Source: an uncultured Gammaproteobacteria bacterium (GTDB taxonomy: Bacteria > Patescibacteriota > Microgenomatia > UBA10105 > UBA927). From it: 64,000 bases of DNA. Of the stretch, positions 25,129 to 61,805 are shown one piece after another (position 1 is the stretch's first letter; every line of letters begins with the position of its first letter). The stretch is from assembly GCA_964527425.1 (NCBI GenBank), contig CAZGOA010000002.1, positions 5,000-68,999 of the forward strand. Direction: 5' to 3'. The translations under genes were made by a program, and so were the position numbers. The notes under the pieces are model-generated. The model worked only from the letters and a program-made list of their open reading frames with translations, made no database searches and had not been told where the DNA came from.

Positions 25129-25202
25129 CGGGGTGTGGCGCAATTGGATAGCGCATTCGCATGGGGTGCGAAAGGCTGCACGTTCAAATCGTGTCACCCC
25201 GA
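25129..25202 (+). tRNA. tRNA-Pro (anticodon GGG)
   Basis: Hand-folded cloverleaf: acceptor CGGGGTG/CACCCCG, T8, D-stem GCGC/GCGC, anticodon stem TTCGC/GCGAA with loop ATGGGGT (G37), T-arm GCACG-TTCAAAT-CGTGT, discriminator A. CCA is not encoded. Confidence 0.8.
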
Positions 25203-44963: not shown

Positions 44964-45587
44964 TTAATTTGTTTTGGTCATTTTTACTAAACTTTGTTTT
45001 GCTCCGGGTATAAGTCCTTTAACTGTAATAGTGCTTTTTTCGGAATTAATTGCAACGATTTTAAGTCCCTTTATGGTTATTGTGTCATTACCCATTCTCC
45101 CGGCCATTCTCAGTCCTGGATATACTCTTCCTGGTGTGGTACCGGCTCCTATTGATCCTGGAGCTCTCCATCTGTCGCTTTGTCCGTGTGTTTTTGGTCC
45201 GCCAGAAAATCCATGTCGTTTTACGACTCCGGCAAATCCTTTTCCTTTGGATACTCCTGTTATAGTTAGCGTATCTCCAACAGTGAACACCTCTTCTGGT
45301 TTTACTTCTTTACCTGCTGTTATTGTTTCATCGAACTCTTGTGTATTGGATAAACGTAAAAAGCGGGGTGCTTTCTCGACTCCCGCTTTTTTCATAATGC
45401 CTTGAATTGGTTTTGTTGTTTTTCGTTTGTTTCCAATTGCAAGAAGATATCCTTTTGATTGACTATCATTGACGATACGAGCCACGACTGTAGGCTCTAT
45501 TGATATATGAGTTACTGCAATTTGAGTACCGTCCTCCTGAAAGAGTCGGCTTTGGCCTAATTTGAATCCGAATAGTGTTGTAATCAT
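44964..45587 (-). CDS. rplC: 50S ribosomal protein L3
   Basis: MITTLFGFKLGQSRLFQEDGTQIAVTHISIEP... and ...KGKGFAGVVKRHGFSGGPKTHGQS... Confidence 0.95.
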   Translation of the reverse strand: MITTLFGFKLGQSRLFQEDGTQIAVTHISIEPTVVARIVNDSQSKGYLLAIGNKRKTTKPIQGIMKKAGVEKAPRFLRLSNTQEFDETITAGKEVKPEEVFTVGDTLTITGVSKGKGFAGVVKRHGFSGGPKTHGQSDRWRAPGSIGAGTTPGRVYPGLRMAGRMGNDTITIKGLKIVAINSEKSTITVKGLIPGAKQSLVKMTKTN

Positions 45588-45595
45588 ATTTAACC

Positions 45596-45623
45596 AAAAA
45601 AAGAGACCTCAGGTTTTGAGGTC
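45596..45623 (-). terminator. Hairpin plus U7 tract (intrinsic-terminator-like) ending 8 nt before the rplC start codon
   Basis: Minus-strand RNA: AGACCUCA-AAACC-UGAGGUCU (perfect 8-bp stem), then CUUUUUUUGG, then UUAAAU AUG of rplC. Confidence 0.5.
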
Positions 45624-45873
45624 TTTGTACTCAATTACCCGAGACTTTTGGTATTCACTTACTTTTTACTGGCAAAGTAATGTTCATGAATTTCACAATT
45701 ATACCAGAGTATCTCTTTAAGTTCAATTTCTATTTTTTCGTATCAATGTTTAGCGAATAGGTAAATATTATATCAAACTCTTGAACTTTTGTCTCTAGGA
45801 TAGTATTTCCTGAAAATGCAGCTAAAATAGTATATTTATTCATATCCTTTTTTATCGTTGTAAACAGTTATTT

Positions 45874-46392
45874 TTATTTAGATATTTCTGAAATATAGTG
45901 ACTTGCAGCACTAATACAGTTAGTTAATACCGACAATAACTCTCTATCCTTGGAATCGTTCATATGATCTGCGTTAAATTCGCCATTACGTTGAACAAAC
46001 GTTGCTGTTGATCCTGACAGTTTGACCGTTGCTGATTGCATATTTTCACCATTAAAACGAATTGTGACTTTGAATAACTCTGTAGGAGTAGGACTTACTT
46101 CTTGAATGAGGGTAGTACGAGTATGTGTAGGACCTGCAATATTTGTACCTGTGATGTTCACTTCTGTAAACACTTGTAAACTGCCATTATTATCTTTGAG
46201 TTTATCTTGCACTGCTATAACGAGCAGTTGTGGAGCTGAGTCTAGAATATGTTGTTGAGGATTACGAACGCGGATAACATCTTTTGGAATTCCGGAACTA
46301 TCACTAGATCTACTCCATGTGATTTGCTCTTCACCATTTTTTACCAGTATAGGATTTTGATTATCGATGCTTCTTAGTTGTTCAACTAGCAT
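45874..46392 (-). CDS. Hypothetical protein (172 aa) inserted between rpsJ and rplC
   Basis: ORF on the operon strand. No signal peptide or TM. No SD upstream of the ATG. No motif recognised. Confidence 0.4.
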   Translation of the reverse strand: MLVEQLRSIDNQNPILVKNGEEQITWSRSSDSSGIPKDVIRVRNPQQHILDSAPQLLVIAVQDKLKDNNGSLQVFTEVNITGTNIAGPTHTRTTLIQEVSPTPTELFKVTIRFNGENMQSATVKLSGSTATFVQRNGEFNADHMNDSKDRELLSVLTNCISAASHYISEISK

Positions 46393-46502: not shown

Positions 46503-46811
46503 TTACATTTTAATTTCTACATCAACTCCTGCAGGGAGATCTAAATGCATCAGTTGATCAATCGTTTTATCTGTAGGTTCTAGAATATCAATTAATCGTT
46601 TATGTGTTTTGAGGAGAAAGTCTTCTCGACTATTGCGGTCAATAAACGTACTTTTAGCAACATTAAAATGTTGTTTATCGGTTGGAAGGGGAACAGGTCC
46701 AACAACACGTGCACCAGTTCGGACTGCTGTGTCAAGAATTTTTTGACAACAATCGTCTATGACTCTGCTGTCGTATGCTTTTAAACGTACTCTGATTCTT
46801 CCTTTTGGCAT
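46503..46811 (-). CDS. rpsJ: 30S ribosomal protein S10
   Basis: MPKGRIRVRLKAYDSRVIDDCCQKILDTAVRTGARVVGPVPLPT... The start was set at the internal Met; the track ORF extends to 46862. Confidence 0.9.
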   Translation of the reverse strand: MPKGRIRVRLKAYDSRVIDDCCQKILDTAVRTGARVVGPVPLPTDKQHFNVAKSTFIDRNSREDFLLKTHKRLIDILEPTDKTIDQLMHLDLPAGVDVEIKM

Positions 46812-46888
46812 GATGGTAATTGTTTGGCAGGTCTTTAGTGTTTTGAGGGCTTTGCTCTTCATGCAAAGCCCTCTTTATCATAAAAATC

Positions 46889-48076
46889 TTAGCTTAATAC
46901 TTTGGCAACTACTCCCGCTCCTACTGTTCGGCCACCTTCACGGATAGCAAATCGCATTCCGTCCTCTAAGGCAACTGGCGTGATAAGGGTTACTACCATT
47001 TTGGTATTGTCTCCTGGCATAACCATTTCAACTCCTTGTGGAAGTTCGATTTCTCCAGTTACGTCAGTTGTACGGATATAGAACTGTGGTCTGTATCCTT
47101 TAAAAAATGGCGTGTGTCGTCCACCTTCTTCTTTTGCAAGAATATATACTTCTGCATCGAATTTGGTATGTGGCTTAACAGACCCTGGTGCAGCCAAAAC
47201 TTGTCCGCGCTCAACTTGGTCTTTTTCAACTCCTCGGAGTAATACTCCGACGTTATCACCTGCTTGTCCCTGATCTAAGAGTTTTCTAAACATTTCAACA
47301 CCAGTTACAACAGTTGATTGTGTTGCTTTGATACCGACAATTTCAATAGTGTCGTTGACCTTTACTACTCCTCTTTCTACTCGGCCGGTAACAACTGTTC
47401 CTCGACCTTTGATAGAGAAGACGTCTTCAACTGGCATTAAGAATGGTTTATCAAGTTCACGGGTTGGAGTTGGGATGTATTCATCAACCGTATCCATAAG
47501 CTTGAGGATTGCTGCTTCTGCTTCGGCATCACCTTCAATTGCTTTGAGTGAACTTCCACGGATAACTGGAACAGTATCTCCTGGGAAACCATATTTCGTT
47601 AAGAGTTCACGAACTTCCATTTCGACTAAGTCGAGGAGTTCTTTATCTTGAACCATATCGCATTTGTTCATGTAGACAACGATAGCTGGAACTGCAACTT
47701 GCTTTGCCAAGAGAATATGTTCTCTGGTCTGTGGCATAGGACCATCTGGAGCGGAAACAACAAGAATTGCACCATCCATTTGAGCAGCTCCGGTGATCAT
47801 GTTTTTGATGTAGTCTGCATGACCAGGGGCATCTATATGAGCGTAGTGTCTGTTTTTTGTTTCATATTCTGAATGATGAATGTTAATTGTGACTCCACGA
47901 GCTTTTTCTTCAGGTGCATTGTCGATTTCATCGTATTTTAGCGCTTTAGCAAGACCTTGTTTTGCAAGTACTTGTGTAATAGCTGAAGTTGTTGTGGTTT
48001 TACCATGATCAACGTGACCAATGGTTCCAATATTTAAATGTGGTTTAGAACGATCAAATTTTTGTTGATCTGCCAT
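46889..48076 (-). CDS. tuf: Elongation factor Tu
   Basis: ...[24 protein letters not shown]... The start was set at MADQQKF; the track ORF extends to 48115. Confidence 0.95.
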
Positions 48077-48191
48077 ATATCCTCCTATAAAATTTTGTAA
48101 TACCTTATTAGCCATCCTGCTATCAAACCATTTTTGAGGTGGTCTGATGGTGGGTTGGCTAAACGTTTATGAATAATGATAATATCACAGT

Positions 48192-50297
48192 TTAGGCCGC
48201 CTTCGCAATAATCTTTTCCGTTATATTTCGTGGAACTTCTTCGTAATGGCTTGGTTCCATATAGTATGTTGCACGACCCTTGGACATACTTCGCAATGTT
48301 GTTGCATATCCTGAGAGTTCAGCTAAAGGAACTTGAGCTAATATGACAGTTGTGTGGCCTCGTTTTTGTGTGCCTTCAATCTGTGCTCTTTTTGATCCAA
48401 GATCTCCGATAATATCTCCCATGAATTCATCAGGCGTTGTAATCTCACATTTCATGATTGGTTCAAGAAGTACAGGAGCAGCGTTCTTTACTGAATTCTG
48501 AAGTGCCATAGATCCTGCAATTTTAAATGCAATTTCTGATGAGTCAACCTCATGATAGGTTCCATCATAGAGCGTAACTTTCATATCTACCAATGGGAAT
48601 CCTGCAACAACGCCATTTTCCATGGCTTCTTTGACGCCTTTTCCAACTGCTGGAATGTATTCGTTGGGAATTGCTCCACCTTTGATAGCATCGACGAATT
48701 CAAATCCTTGACCACGTGGGAGCGGTTCTAATCTGATCAGTGCATGACCATATTGTCCTCGGCCTCCTGATTGGCGAATATACTTTCCTTCACCTTCTGC
48801 ATTTTTGGTAATGGTTTCTTTGTAGGCAACTTGTGGAGCTCCGACATTTGCATCAACTTTGAATTCTCGCTTCATGCGGTCAACTAAAATTTCAAGATGA
48901 AGCTCTCCCATTCCCCAAATGATGGTTTGATTTGTTTCTTGATTAGTTTTGATTTTAAAAGTTGGGTCTTCTTCTGAAAGTCTTTGCAATGCATATCCCA
49001 TTTTTTCCTGGTCATTTTTGGTTTTTGGTTCAATGGCCAGTGAGATAACTGGATCTGGGAATGAAATTTTTTCTAAGACGATTGGATGATCCGGGTCACA
49101 AATAGTATCACCAGTAATGGTGTCTTTAAATCCTACTACTGCAACAATTTCTCCAGCATATGCTTCTTTGATTTCTTCTCGTTGGTTTGCATGCATAAGA
49201 AGAAGTCTTCCTATGCGTTCTTGCACATCTTTACTTGAGTTATAGGTATAGGAGCCTGACACTAATTTGCCTGAATATACTCTTACATATGTGATTTTAC
49301 CCACGTGTGGATCAATTTGAACTTTAAAGGCAAGTCCTGAAAATGGTTCTTCGTTAATTCTTTTTCTGATTTGTGGTTCTTCTGTTTTAGGGTGAGTACC
49401 TGCAACTGGTGGAAGGTCGATTGGGGAAGGAAGATAATCAACCACGGCATCAAGGAGTGGCTGGACACCTTTATTGCGCAAGCTGGTTCCACAGTAAATT
49501 GGAACGAGTTTGTAGGCAATAACTGCCCGGCGAAGTGCTGCTTTTAATTCTTCAACAGAAATTTCTTCACCGTTGAGGAATTTTTCCATTAACACATCGT
49601 CTGTTTCGGAAATACGTTCAATGAGTGCAAGTCGACTTGATTCTACTTCATCTTTAATATCTGCAGGGATGTCATCGGACACATCAAATGCAGCACCTAA
49701 TTCTTCACCTGTCCATACATATGCTTTTCTGCTTAAAAGATCGACAAATCCTTTGAATGTATTTTCTACTCCGATTGGAACGACCATGACAGCGGTTCTT
49801 GCACCTAATCGTTCTTCTATTGATTTGATTGTGGCTCGAAAGTCTGCTCCCAACTTATCCATTTTGTTGATGAAACAAAGACGTGGAACTTTGTATTTGT
49901 CTGCTTGGTGCCAGACTGTTTCTGATTGGGATTGAACTCCTTCTTCTGCATCAAGGACAGTGATCCCTCCATCAAGTACTCGGAGTGAACGTTCTACTTC
50001 TGCGGTAAAATCTACGTGTCCTGGTGTATCGATAATATTAAAGCGGTAGCCTTTCCAAAATGCAGTAGTTGCAGCAGATACGATGGTGATCCCTCGTTCT
50101 TTCTCTTGTTCCATCCAGTCCATTTGGGTGTTACCTTCATCGATATCACCAATTTTGTATGTTCTTCCTGTGTAATACAGAATACGCTCTGTGGTTGTGG
50201 TTTTACCAGCATCTATGTGTGCGATAATTCCAATGTTACGTACTTTATCTAGTGGTACATTACGATCTGATGTAAGAGTTGTTTGTGGGTTTGCCAT
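48192..50297 (-). CDS. fusA: Elongation factor G
   Basis: [44 protein letters not shown]... The start was set at ATG 50297; the track ORF extends to 50360. Confidence 0.95.
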
Positions 50298-50338
50298 ATA
50301 GTTTTTTTGTAATAAATATTTGTTATGTTTTAAACGAC

Positions 50339-50367
50339 AAAAAAACTGTTTCAAAGACATGAAACAG
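50339..50367 (-). terminator. Hairpin plus U7 intrinsic-terminator-like structure 42-70 nt upstream of fusA
   Basis: Minus-strand RNA: CUGUUUCA-UGUCUU-UGAAACAG (perfect 8-bp stem) followed by UUUUUUU. Confidence 0.5.
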
Positions 50368-50965
50368 TCAATGCGTACAAAAACATTTTACAAAATATTG
50401 TGTGTGTTGTCTATACGGGATGTATGTTAAAAAGGATCACCACATAAATCGTATGGCATGCATACTGGATTAGCAAATGAAGACACTACATACTCAGTGA
50501 CAAAATAACTTACGATAAATAATGAACCAAGGAATACGTAAATAAATATTTTAGAAAGAACGATGTTATGCTTATATCTTTCATAGAAATCTTGAAGAAA
50601 AATAAAAAGAATAAAGTTAATAATAGTACTAATAGTAATTAATATATTTTTTTAATGGAAACTTAAAATACCCTAAGAATGAATATACTCTTGGTTGATA
50701 CCCAGGATATCCAAATAATAAATGTATGTTTGATAACAAATATAGCAAAGAACTATAGAACTTATTCCACTTAATAACGAAATAAATCGATTATGTTTTG
50801 TAACTTTTTAAACAAGTACGTAACAGCCTATTGAAACCAAAGTAATAAATAGAATTTGTGTAACAGGAATAAGTAATACTTCAATAAAATTGATATGGAG
50901 TTTGATTATTGGCGACACTAATCCCATACTATTATATTATACTTGTAAAATCTGTATATTCATTT

Positions 50966-51970
50966 TTAATCCGCAAAGACTTGGGTAAACATTTTCCCCC
51001 AAAGGCCTGCGTCAACTACTCCGATTCCTATTCGTTTAAATTGGGGATCTAAGATATTTCGTTTGTGTCCCTCACTATTCATGAGTCCTTCGTGAGCAAT
51101 ATCAACTGTCATGGCATATGCTAAATTTTCTCCTGCTATAAGAAACTCTACTGCTCCAGCTTTTAATCTGTCTGCTGCATCTTTTCCTTGATTATCTATA
51201 TGGGCAAAGAATTTTTCTGTAAGCATGGTGCGGCTATATGCTCGTGCGACATCCTGCATTTTTACTGATGAAACAAGCGGTCCAACTCCAACTTTTGCTC
51301 GTTCATTATTTAGATATTCAAGCATAGTTGATTCACTTTGTGGATCTATTGTAAGTTTGTTGGGATCTATATAGAGAGTAAGATCAACTCGCTCTGTTGA
51401 TTTAGGTGCAACAGTAAGAAAGCGAGTAAAACGAGATGCAGAGTCTTGAAGTGCGTTAGGCAGCGATCCACCATAAGTATCAAGAATTGATAAGACAAAC
51501 GGGATGATTGTTGAGGATTGAATTGTTTCTTTTACATTGCCCTGTAGTGGAACGAGTAGTAACAAAAAGAAAAATGCACTTAAGAAAAAGACTCCAGTAA
51601 TCGCTGACATAAGCGCTCCTGCTGCTTTGTTTACTCTGGAGTGACCCAATCGAATGGTACGCACAAGTACATACCGGAAAAACGTCGACAAGAGTGCTTC
51701 AGCTAAAAATGCAATACAGAAAAACGAGATGAACATATTCCAAACAGATGGGAAAGGACTGAATGATGATATGAAGTCAGAGAGAGGATCGGTATATTTA
51801 ATGGCAACAATAAATGATACGACCAGAGTTATTAAACTAGACATTAAATAGAGAAAGCCACGATTCCATCCACGATAAAGAAAAAAGAGTAAACCTACTA
51901 TAAATACAAAATCTACTAATGAGAACATGCGGGTCATTATACGCCAATGACGTGTAAATACGAAGCTCAA
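50966..51970 (-). CDS. CvpA-like membrane domain fused to a C-terminal CAP/SCP/PR-1 (YkwD-like) domain
   Basis: N-terminus ...VDFVFIVGLLFFLYRGWNRGFLYLMSSLITLVVSFIVA is CvpA-like, with 4 TM. C-terminus ...GENLAYAMTVD...GHKRNILDPQFKRIGIGVVDAG... is a CAP-domain signature. Confidence 0.55.
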   Translation of the reverse strand: MSFVFTRHWRIMTRMFSLVDFVFIVGLLFFLYRGWNRGFLYLMSSLITLVVSFIVAIKYTDPLSDFISSFSPFPSVWNMFISFFCIAFLAEALLSTFFRYVLVRTIRLGHSRVNKAAGALMSAITGVFFLSAFFFLLLLVPLQGNVKETIQSSTIIPFVLSILDTYGGSLPNALQDSASRFTRFLTVAPKSTERVDLTLYIDPNKLTIDPQSESTMLEYLNNERAKVGVGPLVSSVKMQDVARAYSRTMLTEKFFAHIDNQGKDAADRLKAGAVEFLIAGENLAYAMTVDIAHEGLMNSEGHKRNILDPQFKRIGIGVVDAGLWGKMFTQVFAD

Positions 51971-52014
51971 GTAATTTTCGATTTACTTCAATGTATATTG
52001 GACTAATGACAGTT

Positions 52015-53148
52015 CTATTTCTTTTTAGGAAAAGGAAGATAGGTTAATCCTCCAAATCCGTATAATGTAATAACTAAGGATGTAAACCCACCGATAAACG
52101 GAATTTGTTGGAGCGCCCATAACGTAATTACGCCGAGAATAAGAGACCAGCCTAAATGACCTTTTTTGGCGTCCCAAAGTCGTTCGATGAGAAACAATCC
52201 AAGGATTATGGCTGATAATGCTCTCGCAATAAAATAGCTCAGAATAATAACACCAATCCCTATAAAAACAACGGGAATACCGATAATGGTAATTAAGAGA
52301 AGGAGTAATGATACAGGAATGAGAACGAGGAAAATTAATCCTCTTACAAGAGTCAATCCTGGAGACTGCTGCATTGTTTGAAGGAGGACGGTGGTTCTTT
52401 TTTTCATAAAAAATATGCAGAGTCCCCCAAATACTAAACTTAAAACTATAAAAGGGATTCCTCTATTTGATTCTCTTGATTTTGCAGATTCTCCTACTTC
52501 GATTCTTGCTCTATCTTTTTTTGGCGTTGATTTATTTACAACTCCAGAAACAGATGCTTGTTCATCTATTGTTGCTGAGTTTTCACTGGTATAGTGAATA
52601 TTTCCTGCAACACTGGCACCGGGAAGAAGAGATAACGAATCTACTGAAACGTCTAGATCTTGTACTGTTCCAGAAACTGTTACTGTTTCTCCTCCACCGT
52701 ACACTGATTTGAAAATGTTGCCTGCAAATGTAGCATGTTGTACTCCAAAGCCTACTTCTCCTGCTACACTCGCCTGTTTACTGATTGTAAGATTTTGCGC
52801 AAGTGCAGATACGTTTCCGGATATACTGCTTTCCAGATTAACCATTTGACCTGCTAGTCGAACATCACCTTTTACAGTACCTGTGATATCCACATTCTGT
52901 CCTGCACAGATAACATCTCCGTTTACTTGACCATTTATTTCAATATGCTGACCAACACAGAAAACATCACCATCGACATCTCCATCTACTTGAACGCGCG
53001 CACCGGTGATAAATAAAGAACCTTGACTCGTCTCTTGTTTTGTAAAAAGTGCTTGTTCTCCGGATCGTACAGTAAACGCATATGTTTTTACTGGGAATGC
53101 TAAAACGAAAATACTTAAGCAGAATAAAATAAGTCGTGTCAACTTCAT
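52015..53148 (-). CDS. Signal peptide + bactofilin-like beta-solenoid repeats + C-terminal polytopic membrane domain
   Basis: MKLTRLILFCLSIFVLAFPVKTYA signal. Repeats ...VDGDVDGDVFCVGQHIEINGQVNGDVICAGQNVDITGTVKGDVRLAG... About 5 C-terminal TM helices. Confidence 0.5.
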   Translation of the reverse strand: MKLTRLILFCLSIFVLAFPVKTYAFTVRSGEQALFTKQETSQGSLFITGARVQVDGDVDGDVFCVGQHIEINGQVNGDVICAGQNVDITGTVKGDVRLAGQMVNLESSISGNVSALAQNLTISKQASVAGEVGFGVQHATFAGNIFKSVYGGGETVTVSGTVQDLDVSVDSLSLLPGASVAGNIHYTSENSATIDEQASVSGVVNKSTPKKDRARIEVGESAKSRESNRGIPFIVLSLVFGGLCIFFMKKRTTVLLQTMQQSPGLTLVRGLIFLVLIPVSLLLLLITIIGIPVVFIGIGVIILSYFIARALSAIILGLFLIERLWDAKKGHLGWSLILGVITLWALQQIPFIGGFTSLVITLYGFGGLTYLPFPKKK

Positions 53149-53173
53149 ACAGTAAGTTAAGTATACACGATTT

Positions 53174-54028
53174 CTAACTATTTTCAGTATTGTTAATCAC
53201 TTTTTTTACCCGATCTACGTTTTTTTGATCTGGTCCGTTATTGTCAAAACCTGGCGTTTCAAGAAACATTGGTATGTTTGTAAGGTAAGGATTTGTAATA
53301 AAGGCAGATAATCCATTTAAACCAATTTTTCCTTCTCCAATATTTTCGTGCCTATCATTTTTTTTACCGAGATCTATTTTCGAATCATTAAGATGAATAG
53401 CTTTTATTTCTTGCCATCCAATTATCTGTTCTACTGCTTCTACAAACTGTTTGACTGTATCTGGTGTTCGCATATCATACCCTGCTGCAAAAGCATGCGC
53501 AGTATCGATACAAAACTTAATCTGTGAAGATGGTAAATCTTTTTTTATTTGTGCCATTTCTTCTAGTGTTGAGGGGATTTTCCCTCCACTTCCTGCACTA
53601 TTTTCAATAAGAATTGTTGAACTTTGGGGAGCATGCTCCAAGATATGTATAAATGTGTTAATCAGTTCTATGCGTTTAGTACCACTCCATTTATCTTTGT
53701 GACTTCCTAAATGCAATACTACTCCTAGTCCATCAATAGAAGATGATACTTCTAAATCTGCAATCAGTGATTCTTTAGAACGTTTGAGAATATACGATGA
53801 ATCTGATGCAAGATTTATGAGATAACATGCATGAATAAGAATTGGTTCGATGGTTTGTTCTTTTGCATAGTGTTTGAATGCGTGCAATGTTTCTGAAGAA
53901 AAACGAGGGGTCAACCACTGCTGGGGTGGGCTGGTAAAAATTTGTAATGCGTTTGCTCCGATTGAAACTGCTCTATCTACTGCTTTAGTTAGACCTCCAG
54001 CAATTGACTGATGAGCACCAATTCTCAT
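53174..54028 (-). CDS. nfo: Endonuclease IV (AP endonuclease family 2)
   Basis: MRIGAHQSIAGGL...HACYLINLAS...VLHLGSH...ILIENSAG...CIDTAHAFAAGYD...HLNDSK...DRHENIG (metal-ligand set). Confidence 0.9.
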   Translation of the reverse strand: MRIGAHQSIAGGLTKAVDRAVSIGANALQIFTSPPQQWLTPRFSSETLHAFKHYAKEQTIEPILIHACYLINLASDSSYILKRSKESLIADLEVSSSIDGLGVVLHLGSHKDKWSGTKRIELINTFIHILEHAPQSSTILIENSAGSGGKIPSTLEEMAQIKKDLPSSQIKFCIDTAHAFAAGYDMRTPDTVKQFVEAVEQIIGWQEIKAIHLNDSKIDLGKKNDRHENIGEGKIGLNGLSAFITNPYLTNIPMFLETPGFDNNGPDQKNVDRVKKVINNTENS

Positions 54029-54029
54029 A

Positions 54030-55241
54030 CTAAAGAAGGGTTGCTTGATTATTGAGGTCTTTTGTTGAGGATGGCGTTGATTCTGTTGAAACGGCTTCTT
54101 CTTCTAATAATTCTAATCCTTTAACGGTAGGAAACGACTGTCCAATAACACCACTCATTGTACCTACGAAACCTGCAGTACTCGTAAATAATTTTTGCAC
54201 CTGTGCTTCTCTTGTTTTCCATATTTTCTCAAATGCTGCTCGTTCTTTTAAGACTTGCACCTGCATATCTTTGTATACTTCAACTATTGCTTCTATATGT
54301 TGTCGAAATTCATGACTAGTGACGTATTCGTATAATTTTTCTGATGATCCTTCTTTATTTTGAATAATAAATTTCTCCCGGGCAACGTCAATTAGTTTTT
54401 GCCGTAATACCGATGCTATTGGAGTTACTAAGAGTGGACTTACCACATAAACACCATCTATAAACCCAAATCCGTTACTGGCTTCTTCGGGTAGTACTGT
54501 TGAAATAATGATAGGAATATTTGCTTTTTCTGCTCTTAAATCATCTTTTAGCTTGCGAACCCAGTCTTGTGACCAAGATTTCGTTCGTTTGGATTCCCAC
54601 AGAATTGTGCCACAGACATTACCAATTGTTGTTTTAACTACTTGGCGTATATCTGCTCCTTTTACTCCCTTTTCTACGGGAGAGATTGTGTCTGTGGGGA
54701 AGGTTTGGCGAAGCAGTTGTTCTATATCGAGTTCGGCTACTTCACCTTGAGTTTGTTGTGAACCTTGTTGAGCTTTGCGTTGTGCATCATCAAGCGCTTT
54801 TCGTAAATCACTAATGACTTTTTCTTTCTCGAGTTCTTTTAATCGATGTTGTTCAGTCACCTGACGATAGACTGATTCTTCTACTTTTTTCTTTTCTTGA
54901 TCTACTTTTCTTGCAACTTCAAGTTCCATATCTTTTTTTGCATCTTCAAGTTTTCTTTTTTCTTCTCGTAGTCTGAGTTCTTCTTGCCTCATTTCTGTAA
55001 CTTTTTGTTGGCTTTCCGTAATTTGCTTTTTTAGATCAGTTATTTCTAATGCTGTTTTTTCTTGAAGCTGTTTTTTTATTGAATCTTCTGCTGTTTTTAT
55101 AGTTTGTTCTAACTCTTGTTTATGTTTTTTTTCAATGTCTGCTAATAATTCTTCTTGTACTTGATGAACTAATGCCTGTGTTACTTCAATAGCTTTTCCA
55201 CAAGAAGGGCATGTGATTGTTGAAATCATAATACTGGTCAT
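54030..55241 (-). CDS. DUF2130-like protein: N-terminal CxxC, long coiled coil, conserved C-terminal domain
   Basis: ITCPSCGKAIEV. About 150 aa of E/K-rich heptads. C-terminal ...FPTDTISPVEKGVKGADIRQVVK...GTILWESKRTKSWSQDWVRKLKDD... resembles DUF2130 from memory. Its start codon is 2 nt from the nfo stop. Confidence 0.45.
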   Translation of the reverse strand: MTSIMISTITCPSCGKAIEVTQALVHQVQEELLADIEKKHKQELEQTIKTAEDSIKKQLQEKTALEITDLKKQITESQQKVTEMRQEELRLREEKRKLEDAKKDMELEVARKVDQEKKKVEESVYRQVTEQHRLKELEKEKVISDLRKALDDAQRKAQQGSQQTQGEVAELDIEQLLRQTFPTDTISPVEKGVKGADIRQVVKTTIGNVCGTILWESKRTKSWSQDWVRKLKDDLRAEKANIPIIISTVLPEEASNGFGFIDGVYVVSPLLVTPIASVLRQKLIDVAREKFIIQNKEGSSEKLYEYVTSHEFRQHIEAIVEVYKDMQVQVLKERAAFEKIWKTREAQVQKLFTSTAGFVGTMSGVIGQSFPTVKGLELLEEEAVSTESTPSSTKDLNNQATLL

Positions 55242-55293
55242 TCTACCATCACCAAGAAGAAGTACAATCCATCAACTGCTTACACGAATTGTG

Positions 55294-55575
55294 TTAATAG
55301 TATTTACGTTGCTTATGTAAGTGATTCATGAATCCGAATGCTGCTAATCCATGAACAATCACGCCTACTCCCCATCCTGCTCCTACAACAAAGAACATAT
55401 TTAAATCGGAAGTATAGGAATAAAAGTAAGTAAATAATCCAAACATGACTAATAAATAGATAATAAGATGAACGGCAAAGCTCTTTATTTCTTCTTGGGT
55501 TTGCTCTTTAACTTGTGAAGAAACACTACGAGATGAACTTTTTGATCGGGCAGATTTTTTCATATTTTCCTCCAA
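55294..55575 (-). CDS. Small 2TM-domain membrane protein
   Basis: ...FAVHLIIYLLVMFGLFTYF...MFFVVGAGWGVGVIVHGLAAFGF... pattern of the 2TM family. Confidence 0.4.
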   Translation of the reverse strand: MEENMKKSARSKSSSRSVSSQVKEQTQEEIKSFAVHLIIYLLVMFGLFTYFYSYTSDLNMFFVVGAGWGVGVIVHGLAAFGFMNHLHKQRKYY

Positions 55576-55661
55576 TAACAGTATTTAGCGTATCGTAGAT
55601 TTATACTCATTGCAACATAGAAGCTTGACGAAGTGATAATAATTAGAGATTATGAAGCTAT

Positions 55662-56117
55662 ATGAAAGTATTACTCCTTTATACTACTAACTCTGGTTCT
55701 ACAGAAATGGCTGCCCAAGAAATTGTCAATCGCCTTTCTCCATCACATGAAGTGACGATGAAACGCGTTAATCAATCTACTGCTGACGATATCAAAGCGG
55801 TAGATGCAGTTATTTTAGGGTCTCCAAGTTGGGATCATGATGGAAAAGAAGGACAACCACATGATGAATTTTTTGTTTGGAAAGGAACGGTTGATCCATC
55901 TGCATTCGCAGGGAAAAAAATGGCCGTCTATGGGTGTGGAGATAGTTCCTATCAGATTTTCTGTGGAGCTGTAGATGAGCTGGAAAAATGGATCGCTGAA
56001 TGGAATGGTGTTAAAGTTGTTGATTCATTACGAATGGACAAATATTACTATAATATGGCTGAAAATGCAGGGAAAATTGAAGAGTGGTGTAAACAATTGT
56101 TGGAAACATTAAAGTAA
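55662..56117 (+). CDS. Flavodoxin (short-chain)
   Basis: MKVLLLYTTNSGSTEMAAQEI (FMN phosphate-binding T/SxTGxT loop)...VILGSPSW...MAVYGCGDSSY... Confidence 0.8.
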   Translation: MKVLLLYTTNSGSTEMAAQEIVNRLSPSHEVTMKRVNQSTADDIKAVDAVILGSPSWDHDGKEGQPHDEFFVWKGTVDPSAFAGKKMAVYGCGDSSYQIFCGAVDELEKWIAEWNGVKVVDSLRMDKYYYNMAENAGKIEEWCKQLLETLK

Positions 56118-56127
56118 ACACTTCAAT

Positions 56128-56739
56128 TTACGATGTTATTGGTAAATTATCTTTATACATCCAGAGTATTCTGCAGGCGTATGTTCTATATGGTTTCCAT
56201 TTAGCACTAATTTTTAGCATTTGATTTGTAGTGGGTTTCGTTTTAAATTTGTAGAGTTTTTGAATAGCGTTTTGTAATCCTACGTCTCCTACTGAAAAAA
56301 TATCTTCACGACCTAAGGTGAACATAAGAAACATTTCTGCAGTCCACCGACCTATCCCTTTTATTTGTGTTAATTGAGTAATGACTTCTTCATCAGTCAG
56401 ATTTTCTAAGTTAGCGATATCAAGTTTATTCTCAATAATTGCTCGAGCAATATTTTGGACATAATCTGCTTTATTCCAGGACATACCAACGTTTCTCAAA
56501 TGTTCTCTTGTTAAACGCAGTGTTTGTTCTGGTGTAACTTTTTTATCAGTATAAAGTGCAACAAATCGTTTCACGATTGTGTCACTTGCTTTAACTGATA
56601 ATTGTTGCGAGATTATTGATTCAACCAGTGAAAAGAATATATTGTTTGATTTATGTAAGTGAAAGGTTACTGAGGGCGTAATCGCTGAATGAAGTATTGG
56701 ATCTTTTATTTGGAAATAAGAATTGATTAAGTCTTTCAT
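56128..56739 (-). CDS. HhH-GPD superfamily DNA glycosylase (AlkA/3-methyladenine glycosylase II-like)
   Basis: HhH-GPD: ...LTQIKGIGRWTAEMFLMFTLGREDIFSVGDVGLQ... with catalytic Asp after the GIG hairpin. Confidence 0.7.
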   Translation of the reverse strand: MKDLINSYFQIKDPILHSAITPSVTFHLHKSNNIFFSLVESIISQQLSVKASDTIVKRFVALYTDKKVTPEQTLRLTREHLRNVGMSWNKADYVQNIARAIIENKLDIANLENLTDEEVITQLTQIKGIGRWTAEMFLMFTLGREDIFSVGDVGLQNAIQKLYKFKTKPTTNQMLKISAKWKPYRTYACRILWMYKDNLPITS

Positions 56740-57155
56740 TTTTATACCACGTTTCCCATATAATTACGGAATGGATCTGTCAATATTTCTCTAATAACTC
56801 CACATTTTCTATTGTTTCCACTAATTAAATGATTGCCATTTACTGCTTGCAACAGTGTTGTCCATTCCGCATTTATTACTGATGAGAGAACTAACTGTAT
56901 TTGTCGTGATCAATTACGTATATTTTTACCATATGAAATAACTGTATAAAACACTAGCCGTTGATCTTTCAGTATAACTGGTTTCATTGTTTCTTGAATC
57001 GTTTGATTCGATATTGTAATTGATACTATTGGAATAGCATCTTGTACAGTGATAAAAATCTGTACGGAGAGAATTATAAGGTTTCACCAATTCCATAATC
57101 TTTGGGGTATGGAATAGGCTGTATTCATTCAGACATACAGGCTATCCTTGAGTAA

Positions 57156-57629
57156 TTACCACTTGAAGTGTGCAAATGCTCTGTTTGCTTCAGCCATGCG
57201 ATGGACGGTATCTCTTTTTTTAATTGCTTCTCCTTCGCCTTTTGCGGCTGATTGAAGTTCTGCTGCTAATTTGTGTCCGAATGTTTTGTAGTCTTTATTT
57301 GATCGTTTTCTGGCAAATGTAACCATCCAGCGAATTGCAAGTGAAATTCTTCTATCTCCGCGTACTTCCATAGGTACTTGATATGATGCACCTCCAACTC
57401 TTCTGGCTTTTACTTCCATTTTTGGTCCTACATTTTGTACTGCTAATTCAAATGTTTTTATTGGGTCTTCGCCTGATTCTTTAATAAGATCTAATGCTCC
57501 GTATACTTGTTTTTGTGCGGTTGACTTCTTCCCGTCCAACATAACACGATTTATAAATCTACCTAAAAGGCGATTGCCGTAAATTGGATCTGGTTCTGAT
57601 AATTTTTTAGTTACTCGTCCTGCTCTCAT
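57156..57629 (-). CDS. rpsG: 30S ribosomal protein S7
   Basis: MRAGRVTKKLSEPDPIYGNRLLGRFINRVMLDGKKSTAQK... Confidence 0.95.
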   Translation of the reverse strand: MRAGRVTKKLSEPDPIYGNRLLGRFINRVMLDGKKSTAQKQVYGALDLIKESGEDPIKTFELAVQNVGPKMEVKARRVGGASYQVPMEVRGDRRISLAIRWMVTFARKRSNKDYKTFGHKLAAELQSAAKGEGEAIKKRDTVHRMAEANRAFAHFKW

Positions 57630-57639
57630 TGGTTACTCC

Positions 57640-58077
57640 TTAATTTGCTTTGGCTGCTTTAGGGCCACTATTACTTTTTTTACTTCCGTATCGACTTCGT
57701 CCTTGCTTTCTTGTTTCTACTCCGGTCATATCATATTTTCCTCGCACTATATGATATTTTACACCTGGAAGATCCGGAACACGTCCTCCTCGTACCAACA
57801 CGATTGCGTGTTCATTGAGCGAGTGACCAATTCCTGGAATATATGCTGTTACTTCTTGTTTATTTGATAACCGTACACGAGCGACTTTTCGAAGAGCTGA
57901 GTTTGGTTTTTTGGGTGTCATGGTTTTCACCAATGTAACCACTCCTCTTTTAAACGGTGCTGTGAGTTGTTTAGTAACTCGGTCTTTTGAGTTAAAGAAT
58001 TTTCGCAATGCTGTCGCTTTTACTTTTGCTTGCTTTTGCGTTCTTCCTTTTCTGATTAATTGATTAATTGTTGGCAT
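57640..58077 (-). CDS. rpsL: 30S ribosomal protein S12 (with an about 12-aa internal insertion and C-terminal extension)
   Basis: [12 protein letters not shown]...[19 protein letters not shown]...[21 protein letters not shown]... Confidence 0.95.
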
Positions 58078-58085
58078 ATTTTTAT

Positions 58086-61000
58086 TTAATTAACATTTAA
58101 CGCAGCGCGTTCTGGACTGACAGGAATCAGTCTGCCGATAATAACATTTTCTTTGAGTCCAAGCAATGTGTCGACTTTTCCAGCAATTGCTGCATCTGTT
58201 AAAACATTGGTTGTTTCTTGGAAAGAAGCCGCAGATAACCATGATTCAGTAAAGAGTGATGCACGGGTAATACCTAAGATCACTACTTGTGCTGTTGCTG
58301 GTTCTCCACCTTCTGCTAATACTCTTGCATTTTCATCTTCAAATCTTCTTCTATCAACTAGTTCTCCTGGAAGAAGAGTTGTATCTCCTGAGTAATCAAT
58401 GCGTACTTTATCACTCATTTTTCTAACTATTACCTCGAAATGCTTATCATTAATTGTAATACCTTGTGATTCATATACTCGTTGTACTTCATTAATCAGG
58501 TATTTTTGTGAACCTCTAAGTCCCCGTACTCTTAATACTTCTTTCAAATCTAAACTCCCTCGTGCTAATTGATCACCTGATGAAACCAATTCTCCATCTC
58601 TTACCAAAAGCTCCATTGTCCGTGGAATTATATATTCAAATTCATCAGAACCGAGTTGTTTATTCTTTATGTGAATAGTATACCCTGTATCTGTTTCTAA
58701 TACTTCGGCTGTACCAGAAATTTCTGCTATTGGTGACAAAATTCTTGGAAGTCTTGCTTCAAAAAGTTCTTCTACTCTCGGAAGTCCTTGGGTTACATCT
58801 AATCCAACGATACCTCCTGCATGTCTAACACGCATAGTAAGCTGTGTTCCAGGTTCTCCAATAGATTGAGCTGCAATAACACCAGCTGGTGTTCCCATCT
58901 CTACAAGGTGTCCGGTAGAAAAATCTCTTCCATAACACTTGGCACACAAACCTGCTTTAGCTGTACAAGCAATAGGTGAACGTATAATTACAGATTCAAT
59001 AGTATGTTCCTCAAGTAATTGAACATTATGTTCATCAATAAATACACCTGCTTCTAAAATTACTTTATTTTTATCTGTAACTACATCTTTTGCTAGATAT
59101 CGTCCAATAACACGCGCAGCTAATGATGCTTGACGATCTTCAGTTCTGCTGATTTCCCATCCTTCTGTTGTACCACAATCATCAAGTCTAATTAATGCAT
59201 CATGAGATACATCAACAAGTCTTCTTGTTAGATATCCTGCATCAGCTGTCTTAAGTGCAGAATCAGTGAGTCCTTTTCGAGAACCTCTTGTAGAAGTTAC
59301 GTATTCAAATATTGAAAGACCTTGTCGATAGTTACTTTTTGTAGGTAATTCAACGATTTTTCCAAGTGGATCAACAACTAATCCCTTTATAGCTGATAAT
59401 TGTTTTAATTGATCTTTTGAAGCACGAGCTCCTCCTGAGTCAATAATCATCTTAACGGGATTATCAGAACCTAATTTATCCCAAGTTTTATTTGCTACTG
59501 TTTCTGTAACTTCTATCCAAATATCATTAGATAAACGCTTCTTTTCTTCAAGTGTGATAAGCCCCATTTGATAATTACTATCTACTTCAGCAACTCTTTG
59601 TTCAGCTTCTTTAATAATTTCTGATTTTTCATCAATCATTTCACAATCAAATACTGAAACTGATAAACCACCACACACTGTTGCTCCCATAAAACCAATA
59701 TTTTTAATTTTATCAATTAATTCTACAACTTCTTCTTTCGTGTACAGTGAAAGTGCTTTAGTGATAATTGATTTAACAGTTGCTGCTTTTATTACTTGAT
59801 TCATGTACTGTAAACCTTCTGGAAGAATTTCATTAAACAGTATTCTACCAACTGTTGTAACTATTCTTTCTCCCTTTATGGAAACTCTTATGGGTATTCG
59901 CAACCCTAATCTTCCTGTTTGATTAGCGTATATTGCTTCTTCAGCATTTCCATACAACGCATATTCTTCATCTTTTTTACCTTCTAGTGAAGGATCGATT
60001 GTTGTTAAATAATAACAACCTAATACCATTTCTTTATTTGGAACCGTAATTGGAGATCCATCAGCTGGTTTTAATAGATTATGTGTAGGAAGCATTAAAT
60101 GAATAGCCTCTTGTTGACTACTTCCAGATAATGGAATATGAACTGCCATTTGATCCCCATCAAAATCTGCATTATATCCCGCACAGACACAAGGATGAAT
60201 TCGAATTGCAGAACCTTCAATGAGTATAGGGAAGAAGGCTTGCATACCTAATTTGTGAAGTGTTGGTGCACGATTAAGTAAAACCGGATGATTTTTCGTT
60301 ATTTCTTCTAAAATATCATACACTTCTGGTGTTCTTCGCTCTAGCACATTTTTTGCATTTTTTACGTTAGGAGCGATTCCTCGTACTATTAATTCACGTA
60401 AAACAAATGGCTTAAACATTTCTAAAGCCATATCTTTCGGAAGTCCACATTGTGTAAGTTTTAATTCTGGTCCCACAACGATAACGGAACGACCAGAATA
60501 ATCTACTCTTTTTCCTAATAAATTTTGTCGGAATCGACCTTGCTTACCTCTTAACATTTCAGAAAGTGATCGCAATGGCTGGATTACTGCTCTTGATGAT
60601 GGTCTTTGGGTGGCATCAATCAAACTATCCACTGCCTCTTGGAGCATTCTTTTTTCGTTTCTTAAAATTATTTCTGGCGCACCGAGTTCAACTAAATGGT
60701 TTAAACGGTTATTTCTATTGATAACTCTTCTATATAAATCATTTAAATCGCTTGTTGCAAAACGTCCACCAGTTAATTGAACCATAGGTCGCAAGTCGGG
60801 TGGCAATACTGGGACATTATTTAATATCATCCAGGACGGATCCATTTCTGCTTTTTTCATTCCGTCTACTACTCTAAGTCGTTTTGTAGCTTTTACATGG
60901 CGTTGACCACTTGTTTTAGAAATTTCATCGCGAAGGTTAGCCGCTGTTTTAGCTAAATCTATGTTTTTTACTACCTCTGCTACAGCCTCAGCACCCATTC

Positions 61001-61805
61001 CTGCCTCAAAAAAATCAACTGCATCATATTCCATTAGTCTTAAATATTCATCTTCAGTTAAGGTTGTTAATGGACGAATAGCTTTAACGGTGTTGACTAA
61101 CCAATTTACTATTTCTTGAATTTTATTTTTCTCTTCAGCAAACTTTGTCTCTAATTTTGCAATATCTTCTCTCTCTTTTAACTCAAGTTCTGATAATGCA
61201 AGACCTGCTGCCTCGCTGTTAGTAATTCGTTTTTTTACATCTTCTCTTTCTTTATCGTATTGTGTTTCTTTTTTAGATTTTTCATCTTGGAATCTGCGTT
61301 CTACATCTGCAAATCTTTCATCCTCTGCACCTGTTAATCGATCTAACACCTTCTGCTTTACTTCATCATTTACTGAAGTTACTAAGTATTGTGCAAAATA
61401 AATAACACCTTCCAATGCTCTTGGACTAACATCAAGTAATAATGATAATTTTGAAGGTGCCCCTTTGAAAAACCATACGTGTGCGACTGGTGCAGCAAGA
61501 GAAATGTGACCCATTCTTTCACGACGAACTTTACTTTGGGTAACTTCTACTCCACACTTATCACAGATAATACCTCTGTAACGAATTCGTTTATATTTAC
61601 CACAGTAACATTCCCAATCTTTTGTTGGACCGAAAATTCGTTCATCAAATAATCCATCTTTTTCAGGTTTTAGTGTTCTATAATTAATAGTTTCAGGCTT
61701 AGTCACTTCTCCATATGACCATGAAAGGATGTCTTCTGATGAGGCCACATTTACTTGTAAACCTGTAAAATCAATAATGTTTGCAAAATTTCCTTTTTTA
61801 TCCAT
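58086..61805 (-). CDS. rpoC: DNA-directed RNA polymerase subunit beta'
   Basis: Zn finger [23 protein letters not shown]. Catalytic [12 protein letters not shown]. Confidence 0.95.

Follow-up and report, generated by a model that had tools for sequence, protein, structure and literature searches.

Bacteria rarely part rpsG from fusA, and the two genes form one of their most conserved adjacencies. Why, then, does a 64,000-nucleotide stretch of contig CAZGOA010000002.1 (hereafter, the window), from an uncultured bacterium of the Candidate Phyla Radiation (CPR), carry seven genes between them? The original prediction, made from the letters of the window, read this interval (hereafter, the island) as a seven-gene insertion into the str operon. 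The separation is as described, with the gene list, coordinates and gap sizes all right; a discrete insertion in one genome is not what we found, since the break is clade-wide and its content has been reshuffled. We conclude that the locus probably reflects an ancient, clade-wide break between rpsG and fusA in a lineage of the Microgenomates (CPR), the spacer having turned into an island of ordinary genes with slow turnover.

To place the break, we compared 80 loci around S7 homologues from species-representative genomes (individual loci are given as L numbers), located the window proteins in each, and built a neighbour-joining tree from RpoC (C-terminal part), S12 and S7. All loci with a large rpsG-fusA distance fell in one clade, mostly labelled "Candidatus Gottesmanbacteria", within Microgenomates/Patescibacteria. 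Seventeen closed intervals in this clade measured 2171-7612 bp, and eight more loci had no fusA within 10 kb. The corresponding distance in the sister clade was -1 to 131 bp, and the non-CPR outgroups mostly had the two genes adjacent (sister and outgroup distances together, -16 to 131 bp in most cases). The order rpoC-rpsL-rpsG ... fusA-tuf-rpsJ was colinear in the window and in every clade locus. Because all split loci belong to one clade, and the sister clade and outgroups keep rpsG next to fusA, these data indicate a single old event that is neither universal in the phylum nor private to this genome. The clade is also marked independently: a motif in the leader of rpoB, GGCGAACGTTCATTGTTCGC, is almost invariant in 26 of the 26 clade loci with coverage and occurs in none outside. 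Thus, the split appears to have arisen once, at the base of the clade, and its content to have diversified later by gain and loss. As to whether the arrangement is ancestral or variable, the comparison gave a double answer: the split is old and shared by the clade, and the content of the interval varies.

The genes on either side of the break, and those within it, are as follows.

58086-61805, minus strand: rpoC, with an 8-bp spacer before rpsL
57640-58077, minus strand: rpsL, in the upstream half of the classical str operon
57156-57629, minus strand: rpsG (Ribosomal_S7, E=5e-56)
56740-57155, minus strand: gap A, the rpsG-alkA spacer, 416 bp
56128-56739, minus strand: alkA-like HhH-GPD DNA glycosylase
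55662-56117, plus strand: short-chain flavodoxin, the sole opposite-strand gene of the island
55294-55563, minus strand: two-transmembrane (2TM) protein, with an ATG start and a GGAGG Shine-Dalgarno sequence
54030-55241, minus strand: DUF2130 protein
53174-54028, minus strand: nfo, endonuclease IV (TIGR00587, 239 bits, above cut-off)
52015-53148, minus strand: signal-peptide bactofilin/DUF8173 membrane protein
50966-51970, minus strand: fusion of CvpA with a CAP (YkwD-type) domain
50298-50965, minus strand: gap B, the spacer between the CvpA-CAP gene and fusA, 668 bp
48192-50297, minus strand: fusA, starting with the ATG at 50297
46889-48115, minus strand: tuf
46503-46811, minus strand: rpsJ

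The flavodoxin gene is convergent with alkA, their stop codons being 10 bp apart, and divergent from the 2TM gene; the 2TM, DUF2130 and nfo genes are tightly packed, with spacers of 52 bp and 1 bp. For the 2TM gene, the ATG at 55563 is the most likely start, and a TTG at 55575 is disfavoured because it is the ATG that has the GGAGG. A sequence search of the PDB with the DUF2130 protein returned chance matches only.

Is fusA still served by the promoter of the genes upstream of the break? We identified a promoter and a leader immediately before fusA.

50385-50413, minus strand: fusA promoter, consisting of TAGACA (50413-50408), a 17-bp spacer and a TG-extended TAAAAT (50390-50385)
50298-50384, minus strand: fusA leader, consisting of a hairpin CTGTTTCA/TGAAACAG (50367-50346), U7 (50345-50339) and a 41-nt A/U-rich spacer

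No other site on the two strands of the 64-kb window matches T[ATG]GACA-N16-18-TAnAAT. Every clade locus that extends to fusA (17 of 17) has this promoter, with fixed 17-bp spacing and divergent spacer sequence. Searching 586 kb of clade sequence with the same pattern gave 40 matches, nearly all before fusA or rpoB, and 33 of these are followed by a hairpin and a U-run. Because a consensus promoter is conserved in 17 of 17 clade genomes, fusA-tuf is very probably an independent transcription unit. The -35 hexamer of this promoter is TAGACA in 15 of the 17 genomes and TGGACA in two; none of them has the consensus TTGACA there. In these genomes the rpoB promoter does have TTGACA, except that the subclade of the window has TTGACC or TTGACG. 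The context of the fusA start codon, YTATGGC, is also conserved. These features suggest selection on more than sigma-factor binding.

The fusA leader of the window folds with z=-2.8. In all 17 clade genomes, a stem with a free energy (dG) of -6.8 to -17.2 kcal/mol abuts a run of 6-8 U residues; the hairpin begins 16-32 nt past the -10 hexamer, and the whole element is ~45-60 nt long. The stems fall into several sequence classes (CTGTTTCA/TGAAACAG, CTGCTTT/AAAGCAG, GCTTCCC/GGGGAGC, CCCGC/GCGGG and CTGTCCCGC/GCGGGGCAG). Among loci with a measurable fusA start, scored by constrained folding of each sequence, a hairpin plus U-run lies upstream of fusA in 17 of 17 clade loci, 10 of 37 other CPR loci and one of nine non-CPR loci. 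An alternative hairpin of the GAAGCA/TGCTTC type, overlapping the 5' arm of the terminator, can form in 13 of the 17 genomes (dG -3.7 to -8.7); it and the terminator stem would be mutually exclusive. No Shine-Dalgarno sequence precedes fusA in any of the 17. An ATG at 50360 is a spurious start that falls inside the hairpin loop. Rfam 15 gave no match at gathering score in the window, and permissive scans of the fusA leader gave chance-level hits only (E>0.1). The hairpin and U7 at 50339-50367 had been predicted as a structured element at the junction of the island. The element is present and conserved; a mere end-of-island junction element it is not, because it lies downstream of the fusA promoter and so cannot simply be a terminator for the island. 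We infer that it is a leaky intrinsic terminator or attenuator, acting both on transcripts that read through the island and on those initiated at the promoter.

Two other core genes of the cluster are preceded by comparable elements. We scanned the window for sense-strand intergenic hairpins with a dG of -8 or lower followed by at least six U residues. Only two were found, the fusA leader and an element before rplC (45625-45596). A third leader precedes rpoB in relatives of the window.

45588-45712, minus strand: rpsJ-rplC leader, with a hairpin AAGACCTCA/TGAGGTCT (45625-45603) and U7 (45602-45596), ending 8 nt before the rplC ATG at 45587
45874-46392, minus strand: orf172, a 172-amino-acid open reading frame (ORF) between rpsJ and the rplC leader
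2230-2320 of locus L001, and 25 other clade loci, upstream of rpoB: rpoB leader (the window itself ends inside rpoB)

The rplC leader has a conserved layout, GATACTTTGGTATA(C/A)T ... CCAAAAGTCTCGG ... ACGACCTC/GAGGTCGT followed by U7-9, and its 5' element reads GATACT(T/C)TGGTATA(A/C)T, then CCAAAAGTCTCGG. We found it between rpsJ and rplC also in L013, L020, L025, L026, L029, L032 and L046. A generic hairpin with a U-run occupies this position in many other CPR genomes, and the spacer in non-CPR outgroups is 17-18 nt. In the RNAalifold prediction, GATACTTTGG pairs with CCAAAAGTCTC, and the 3' arm of the terminator is a possible partner for GUCUCGG; the rplC leader is thus a possible multi-state attenuator. 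Whether TGGTATAAT before rplC serves as a promoter only is uncertain, since the overlapping conserved GATACTTTGG can pair with CCAAAAGTCTC and may belong to an RNA structure. In the rpoB leader, a consensus promoter, TTGAC(A/C)-N16/17-TATAAT, precedes a hairpin that hardly varies, GGCGAAC-GTTCATT-GTTCGC, after which comes TTCTTTTT(G/T)TCGTT; in L036 the hairpin carries a compensatory change to GGTGAAC/GTTCAC. Rfam contains no match for the rplC leader, nor for the rpoB leader at gathering score or in a permissive scan (E>0.1).

Three conserved terminator-type leaders absent from Rfam, those of rpoB, fusA and rplC, are the more interesting by-product of this analysis, and we infer that their role is regulatory. 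A more specific proposal, which we put forward tentatively, is that the fusA hairpin and U7 is one of three clade-conserved, previously undescribed, promoter-proximal attenuator RNAs that would partition the RNA-polymerase/translation supercluster of this CPR lineage into separately tuned units, with the conserved parts binding an operon product and the boundaries setting the sites of insertion. S10/NusE, L4 or S7 would be examples of candidate ligands, and the putative binding parts would be GAAGCA (fusA), GGCGAACGTTCATTGTTCGC (rpoB) and GATACTTTGG...CCAAAAGTCTCGG (rplC).

Several observations weigh against our account of the break and of the fusA leader. The neighbour-joining tree carries no bootstrap support, and in the eight clade loci that end before fusA, the gene could lie elsewhere. 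Some sister-clade genomes have only 3-9 bp between rpsG and fusA, so that the junction was not universally a boundary before the split, although some unsplit relatives (L052, L044 and L067) do already have a hairpin and U-run in a 49-83-bp rpsG-fusA spacer. In the window, the alternative pairing (the antiterminator) has a negligible energy of -2.4 kcal/mol, and regulated attenuation would therefore be weaker here than in relatives. RNAalifold applied to a MAFFT alignment of the 17 fusA leaders gave no common fold, since stem sequence and register vary from leader to leader, and the structural support comes from individual sequences rather than from formal covariation. The U-tract ends 6-41 nt before an ATG that lacks a Shine-Dalgarno sequence, and could act in translation initiation. 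Finally, the promoter, the terminator and the unit boundaries are drawn solely from consensus matches and conservation.

A rival reading is that the operon has remained functionally intact. The rpoB/rpsL promoter would then read through the island into fusA-tuf, the island genes would be co-expressed passengers, and the hairpin and U-tract would serve translation or mRNA stability, for example as a U-rich standby or S1 site for a fusA that lacks a Shine-Dalgarno sequence and has a U-tract so close to its start. Six of the seven island genes do lie on the same strand, with short spacers, and terminator-like sites are not enriched in the region overall (10 found, 7.2 expected). However, the flavodoxin gene, on the opposite strand and convergent with alkA, interrupts simple read-through, and in 17 of 17 genomes a near-consensus promoter with fixed 17-bp spacing stands immediately upstream of the hairpin. 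The stem abutting at least six U residues in all 17 is the signature of an intrinsic terminator, and the only two such sense-strand intergenic elements in 64 kb each lie just upstream of the point at which a core gene resumes. We therefore consider an intact operon unlikely.

If the break is old, what has filled it? We clustered the ORFs of 31 clade loci and annotated representatives of 20 multi-locus families. The 31 loci contain 33 multi-locus gene families and many singletons, in intervals of 2.2 to >10 kb, and this variation supports the earlier description of the interval as a hotspot of variable gene content. The AlkA family is the most persistent, being present in 23 of the 31 loci. Its gene is often the first one 3' of rpsG, and in several lineages is only 2-46 bp away; where the genes are this close, alkA is probably co-transcribed with rpsG. 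It has probably long formed a 3' extension of the rpoBC-rpsLG unit. The other families include DUF2130 (13/31), a DsbD-thioredoxin fusion (11/31), flavodoxin (9/31), CvpA-CAP (9/31) and nfo (6/31). CvpA-CAP sits towards the fusA end where it occurs. Four complete intervals contain it, and in three of these (the window type, L003 and L013) no further ORF was called between it and fusA; at the remaining CvpA-CAP loci, other ORFs come after it or the interval is cut. Further families comprise a PD-(D/E)XK nuclease, an Ogt-like DNA-binding protein, Cdd1, LigT, TspO, a MiaB-like radical-SAM enzyme, thioredoxin, SDR, PGA_cap, MerR-TipAS, a helix-turn-helix protein and a signal peptidase. Functions in DNA repair (base-excision repair), redox and the envelope recur among these families. 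The seven-gene version of the window is shared with L003, a more diverged strain, and occurs in reduced form in L011, L013 and L014. By this comparison, the island is a remodelled old interval of ordinary chromosomal genes rather than one seven-gene insertion.

Turnover is also visible within gap B, which had been described as a large non-coding gap. Its size is correct, but it is not purely non-coding: its last ~115 bp are the conserved promoter and leader of fusA, and upstream of these lies a decayed reading frame.

50427-50927, minus strand: decayed hydrophobic ORF of ~166 codons, with three in-frame stops and 25% GC

This frame (50927-50427) contains three stops where 12 are expected (P=0.002). 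Its first stop is polymorphic, a single base making or removing a TAA, so that the window has a 39-amino-acid ORF and L002 (also L005) one of 84 amino acids. L003 lacks the whole ~420 bp and aligns again from 50420 downward. A homologue search with the conceptual translation found nothing, and translated searches (blastx and tblastx) with the two gaps and the orf172 region as queries, run against the full set of island proteins and loci, matched near-identical strains only. The depletion of stops in one frame and the polymorphism among strains point to a decaying gene for a small membrane protein.

Variable content and a strain-specific patch of this kind might also be expected if this organism had recently gained the island in its str operon, by horizontal acquisition or as a mobile element. 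Interval content does differ between relatives, the 420 bp of AT-rich pseudogene sequence (25% GC) could be foreign, and the window and L003 have diverged faster in the island (75% nucleotide identity) than in the flanks (88-92%). Faster divergence is, however, expected for non-ribosomal genes. We found no integrase, recombinase or transposase among the seven window genes and the 20 multi-locus families (Pfam and NCBIfam), a scan that did not extend to the singleton ORFs of relatives. There were no flanking direct repeats (att) bracketing the island, and a tRNA/tmRNA scan detected none in the region, the only tRNA of the window being at 25129. The island has a GC content of 0.33-0.41 and the flanks have one of 0.36-0.43, and only the 420-bp pseudogene patch departs from this (0.25-0.27). 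Relatives with S7 identity as low as 76% (L013 and L014) have the same genes, identically ordered, and the split is common to the whole clade. A recent or mobile origin is thus highly improbable; as judged from its sequence, the island is neither mobile nor recent.

The arrangement is also reproducible. The identical S7 protein is present on 23 contigs, and at least ten independent assemblies from different sequencing runs have the same genes in the same order after rpsG, as far as their contigs extend; the ten places inspected were Logan assemblies and one JGI metagenome, and five of the inspected same-order contigs reach fusA. The diverged strain L003 is among them. Misassembly, raised with the original prediction as a way in which it might fail, is ruled out by this recurrence. 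That the arrangement is an assembly or binning artefact, or else the ancestral gene order of the whole phylum, has next to no probability: the source sequence is metagenome-derived and rpsG-fusA distances of 0.4-3.3 kb are also seen in several other CPR lineages, but the same junctions recur in those independent assemblies, rpsG and fusA are adjacent in the sister clade and in most other CPR lineages, and the inserts found elsewhere consist of unrelated genes.

Those other inserts form a pattern of their own. In L050-L090, 0.4-3.3 kb of unrelated genes lie between rpsG and fusA, and 0.5-4.5 kb of unrelated genes lie between fusA and tuf in L042, L047, L050, L059, L065, L074-L076 and L085. These are independent events, and both junctions are recurrently permissive in CPR; breaks in the str gene set thus recur across the radiation.

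A second insertion is found further downstream in the window itself. orf172 has no Pfam or NCBIfam match and is absent from every clade relative that covers the spacer, where rpsJ and rplC are 117-182 nt apart. This distribution marks it as a second, younger insertion, inside the classical S10 operon and just upstream of a hairpin-plus-U leader.

How might an ancient break of this kind have been tolerated? In the model that we propose, the classical str operon would have been cut into two transcription units in the split lineage. The first would be rpoB-rpoC-rpsL-rpsG, often with alkA, expressed from the consensus promoter and leader before rpoB. The second would be fusA-tuf-rpsJ, expressed from its own conserved TAGACA-N17-TAnAAT promoter. 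The hairpin and U-tract 16-32 nt past that promoter would stop read-through from the island and tune the output of the promoter. In most relatives, the conserved GAAGCA would pair with the 5' arm of the terminator in the manner of an antiterminator, the lineage of the window having kept only the terminator hairpin. Insertions would be tolerated because the junction was already an operon boundary, and genes would have accumulated at such lineage-specific boundaries. The predicted units are [rpoB-rpoC-rpsL-rpsG(-alkA)] / island / [fusA-tuf-rpsJ] / orf172 / [rplC...].

The kind of event is known, namely gene accumulation at an operon boundary of a conserved transcription and translation cluster; its place is unusual, and it is old and clade-wide. 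In the rpoBC-str-S10-spc cluster, genes insert into inter-operon spacers and further erosion follows later (PMC8046335). Known examples include tusDCB, which separates rpoBC from str, bfd-bfr, which separates str from S10, and nrdHEF, which lies within the rpoBC operon between rplL and rsmC (2019, PMC6735719; Brandis 2021, PMC8046335). As in those cases, a few ordinary chromosomal genes have invaded a spacer of the cluster, the flanks have stayed colinear, and the new order has been inherited by a clade and then eroded, with variable content and sometimes larger separation; there is likewise no sign of long-distance horizontal transfer. Unlike those cases, the break described here separates rpsG from fusA, within a str operon of the E. 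coli type, and the lineage concerned belongs to the CPR; a conserved promoter and terminator-type leader of its own mark the boundary; and the interval varies far more (2.2 to >10 kb, with 33 multi-locus families). The island and orf172 each lie just upstream of the hairpin-plus-U leader of the core gene that resumes, and this position fits the model of inter-operon-spacer invasion (PMC8046335, PMC6735719).

The leaders also have parallels. A terminator hairpin with a U-stretch 5' of fusA, and a possible alternative antiterminator pairing, were described in 2009 (PMC2704228), in a system that likewise concerns a translation-gene operon with a plausible logic of autogenous control. Unlike that system, with which it has no similarity of sequence or structure, the fusA leader of this clade matches no Rfam family, is very short (~45-60 nt) and has a dedicated promoter only 16-32 nt upstream, and a ligand or protein partner is only hypothetical. 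In mechanism, the leader of the E. coli S10 operon comes closest to the fusA leader, and closer still to the rpsJ-rplC leader. There, L4 mediates NusA-dependent attenuation at a hairpin and U-run upstream of rpsJ. Both systems place a promoter-proximal, terminator-type hairpin at the entry to a long ribosomal-protein operon. The elements described here differ in that they precede fusA and rplC rather than rpsJ and are unrelated in sequence, and any role of L4 in this lineage is hypothetical.

In this deep CPR clade, then, the very conserved rpsG-fusA adjacency would have been broken once, at a place that coincides with a dedicated promoter and a terminator-type leader. This supports the idea that clusters of core machinery are rearranged only at operon boundaries, which differ by lineage (here rpoBC-rpsLG / fusA-tuf-rpsJ / rplC...). 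As synteny markers, the split and the rpoB-leader motif allow the clade to be recognised cheaply, and the three leaders can be tested as candidate cis-regulators of transcription and translation genes in unculturable organisms.

The rpsG side of the island differs from the fusA side. Gap A is hypervariable: it can barely be aligned among the window, L002 and L003, despite 100% identical S7 in all three, and AlkA identity to the window is 95% in L002 and 80% in L003. An imperfect hairpin without a U-run lies directly 3' of rpsG (57147-57112), and our hairpin-plus-U scan found no U-run terminator after rpsG. None of the reading frames of gap A is clearly coding (best P=0.015), and an 83-amino-acid ORF after rpsG in L002 and L005 is not a conserved gene, being unconserved in the window and in L003. 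Two further features had been singled out here as a structured junction element.

56876-56861 and 56775-56760, minus strand: arms of a long-range inverted repeat, 16 nt each, 88% complementary, 85 nt apart
56783-56778, minus strand: TTGACA box, enclosed between the arms

Both exist in the window, and the RNA fold of 56760-56880 is more stable than shuffled sequences (z=-2.9); conservation is what they lack. L002 keeps a shifted version of the stem and L003 lacks the whole element, and the TTGACA box is lost in L002, which is a 99%-identical strain. We rejected the box as an alkA promoter, since no acceptable -10 hexamer lies 16-18 bp away and it is unconserved in L002 and L003. Rfam gave no match for gap A, even at permissive E-values (chance level, E>0.1). 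A junction element on the rpsG side is thus unproven. Between 57054 and 56884, a patch of ~170 bp cannot be aligned with L002 and L005, strains that are ~99% identical elsewhere and 95% identical in AlkA, which suggests local recombinational replacement at the rpsG-alkA junction.

The 77-nt spacer between tuf and rpsJ contains, at 46845-46873, a strong 11-bp stem, GAGGGCTTTGC/GCAAAGCCCTC, with seven G-C pairs. The sense strand continues from it with AAAA and no U residues, and the stem is possibly an element of mRNA processing or stability.

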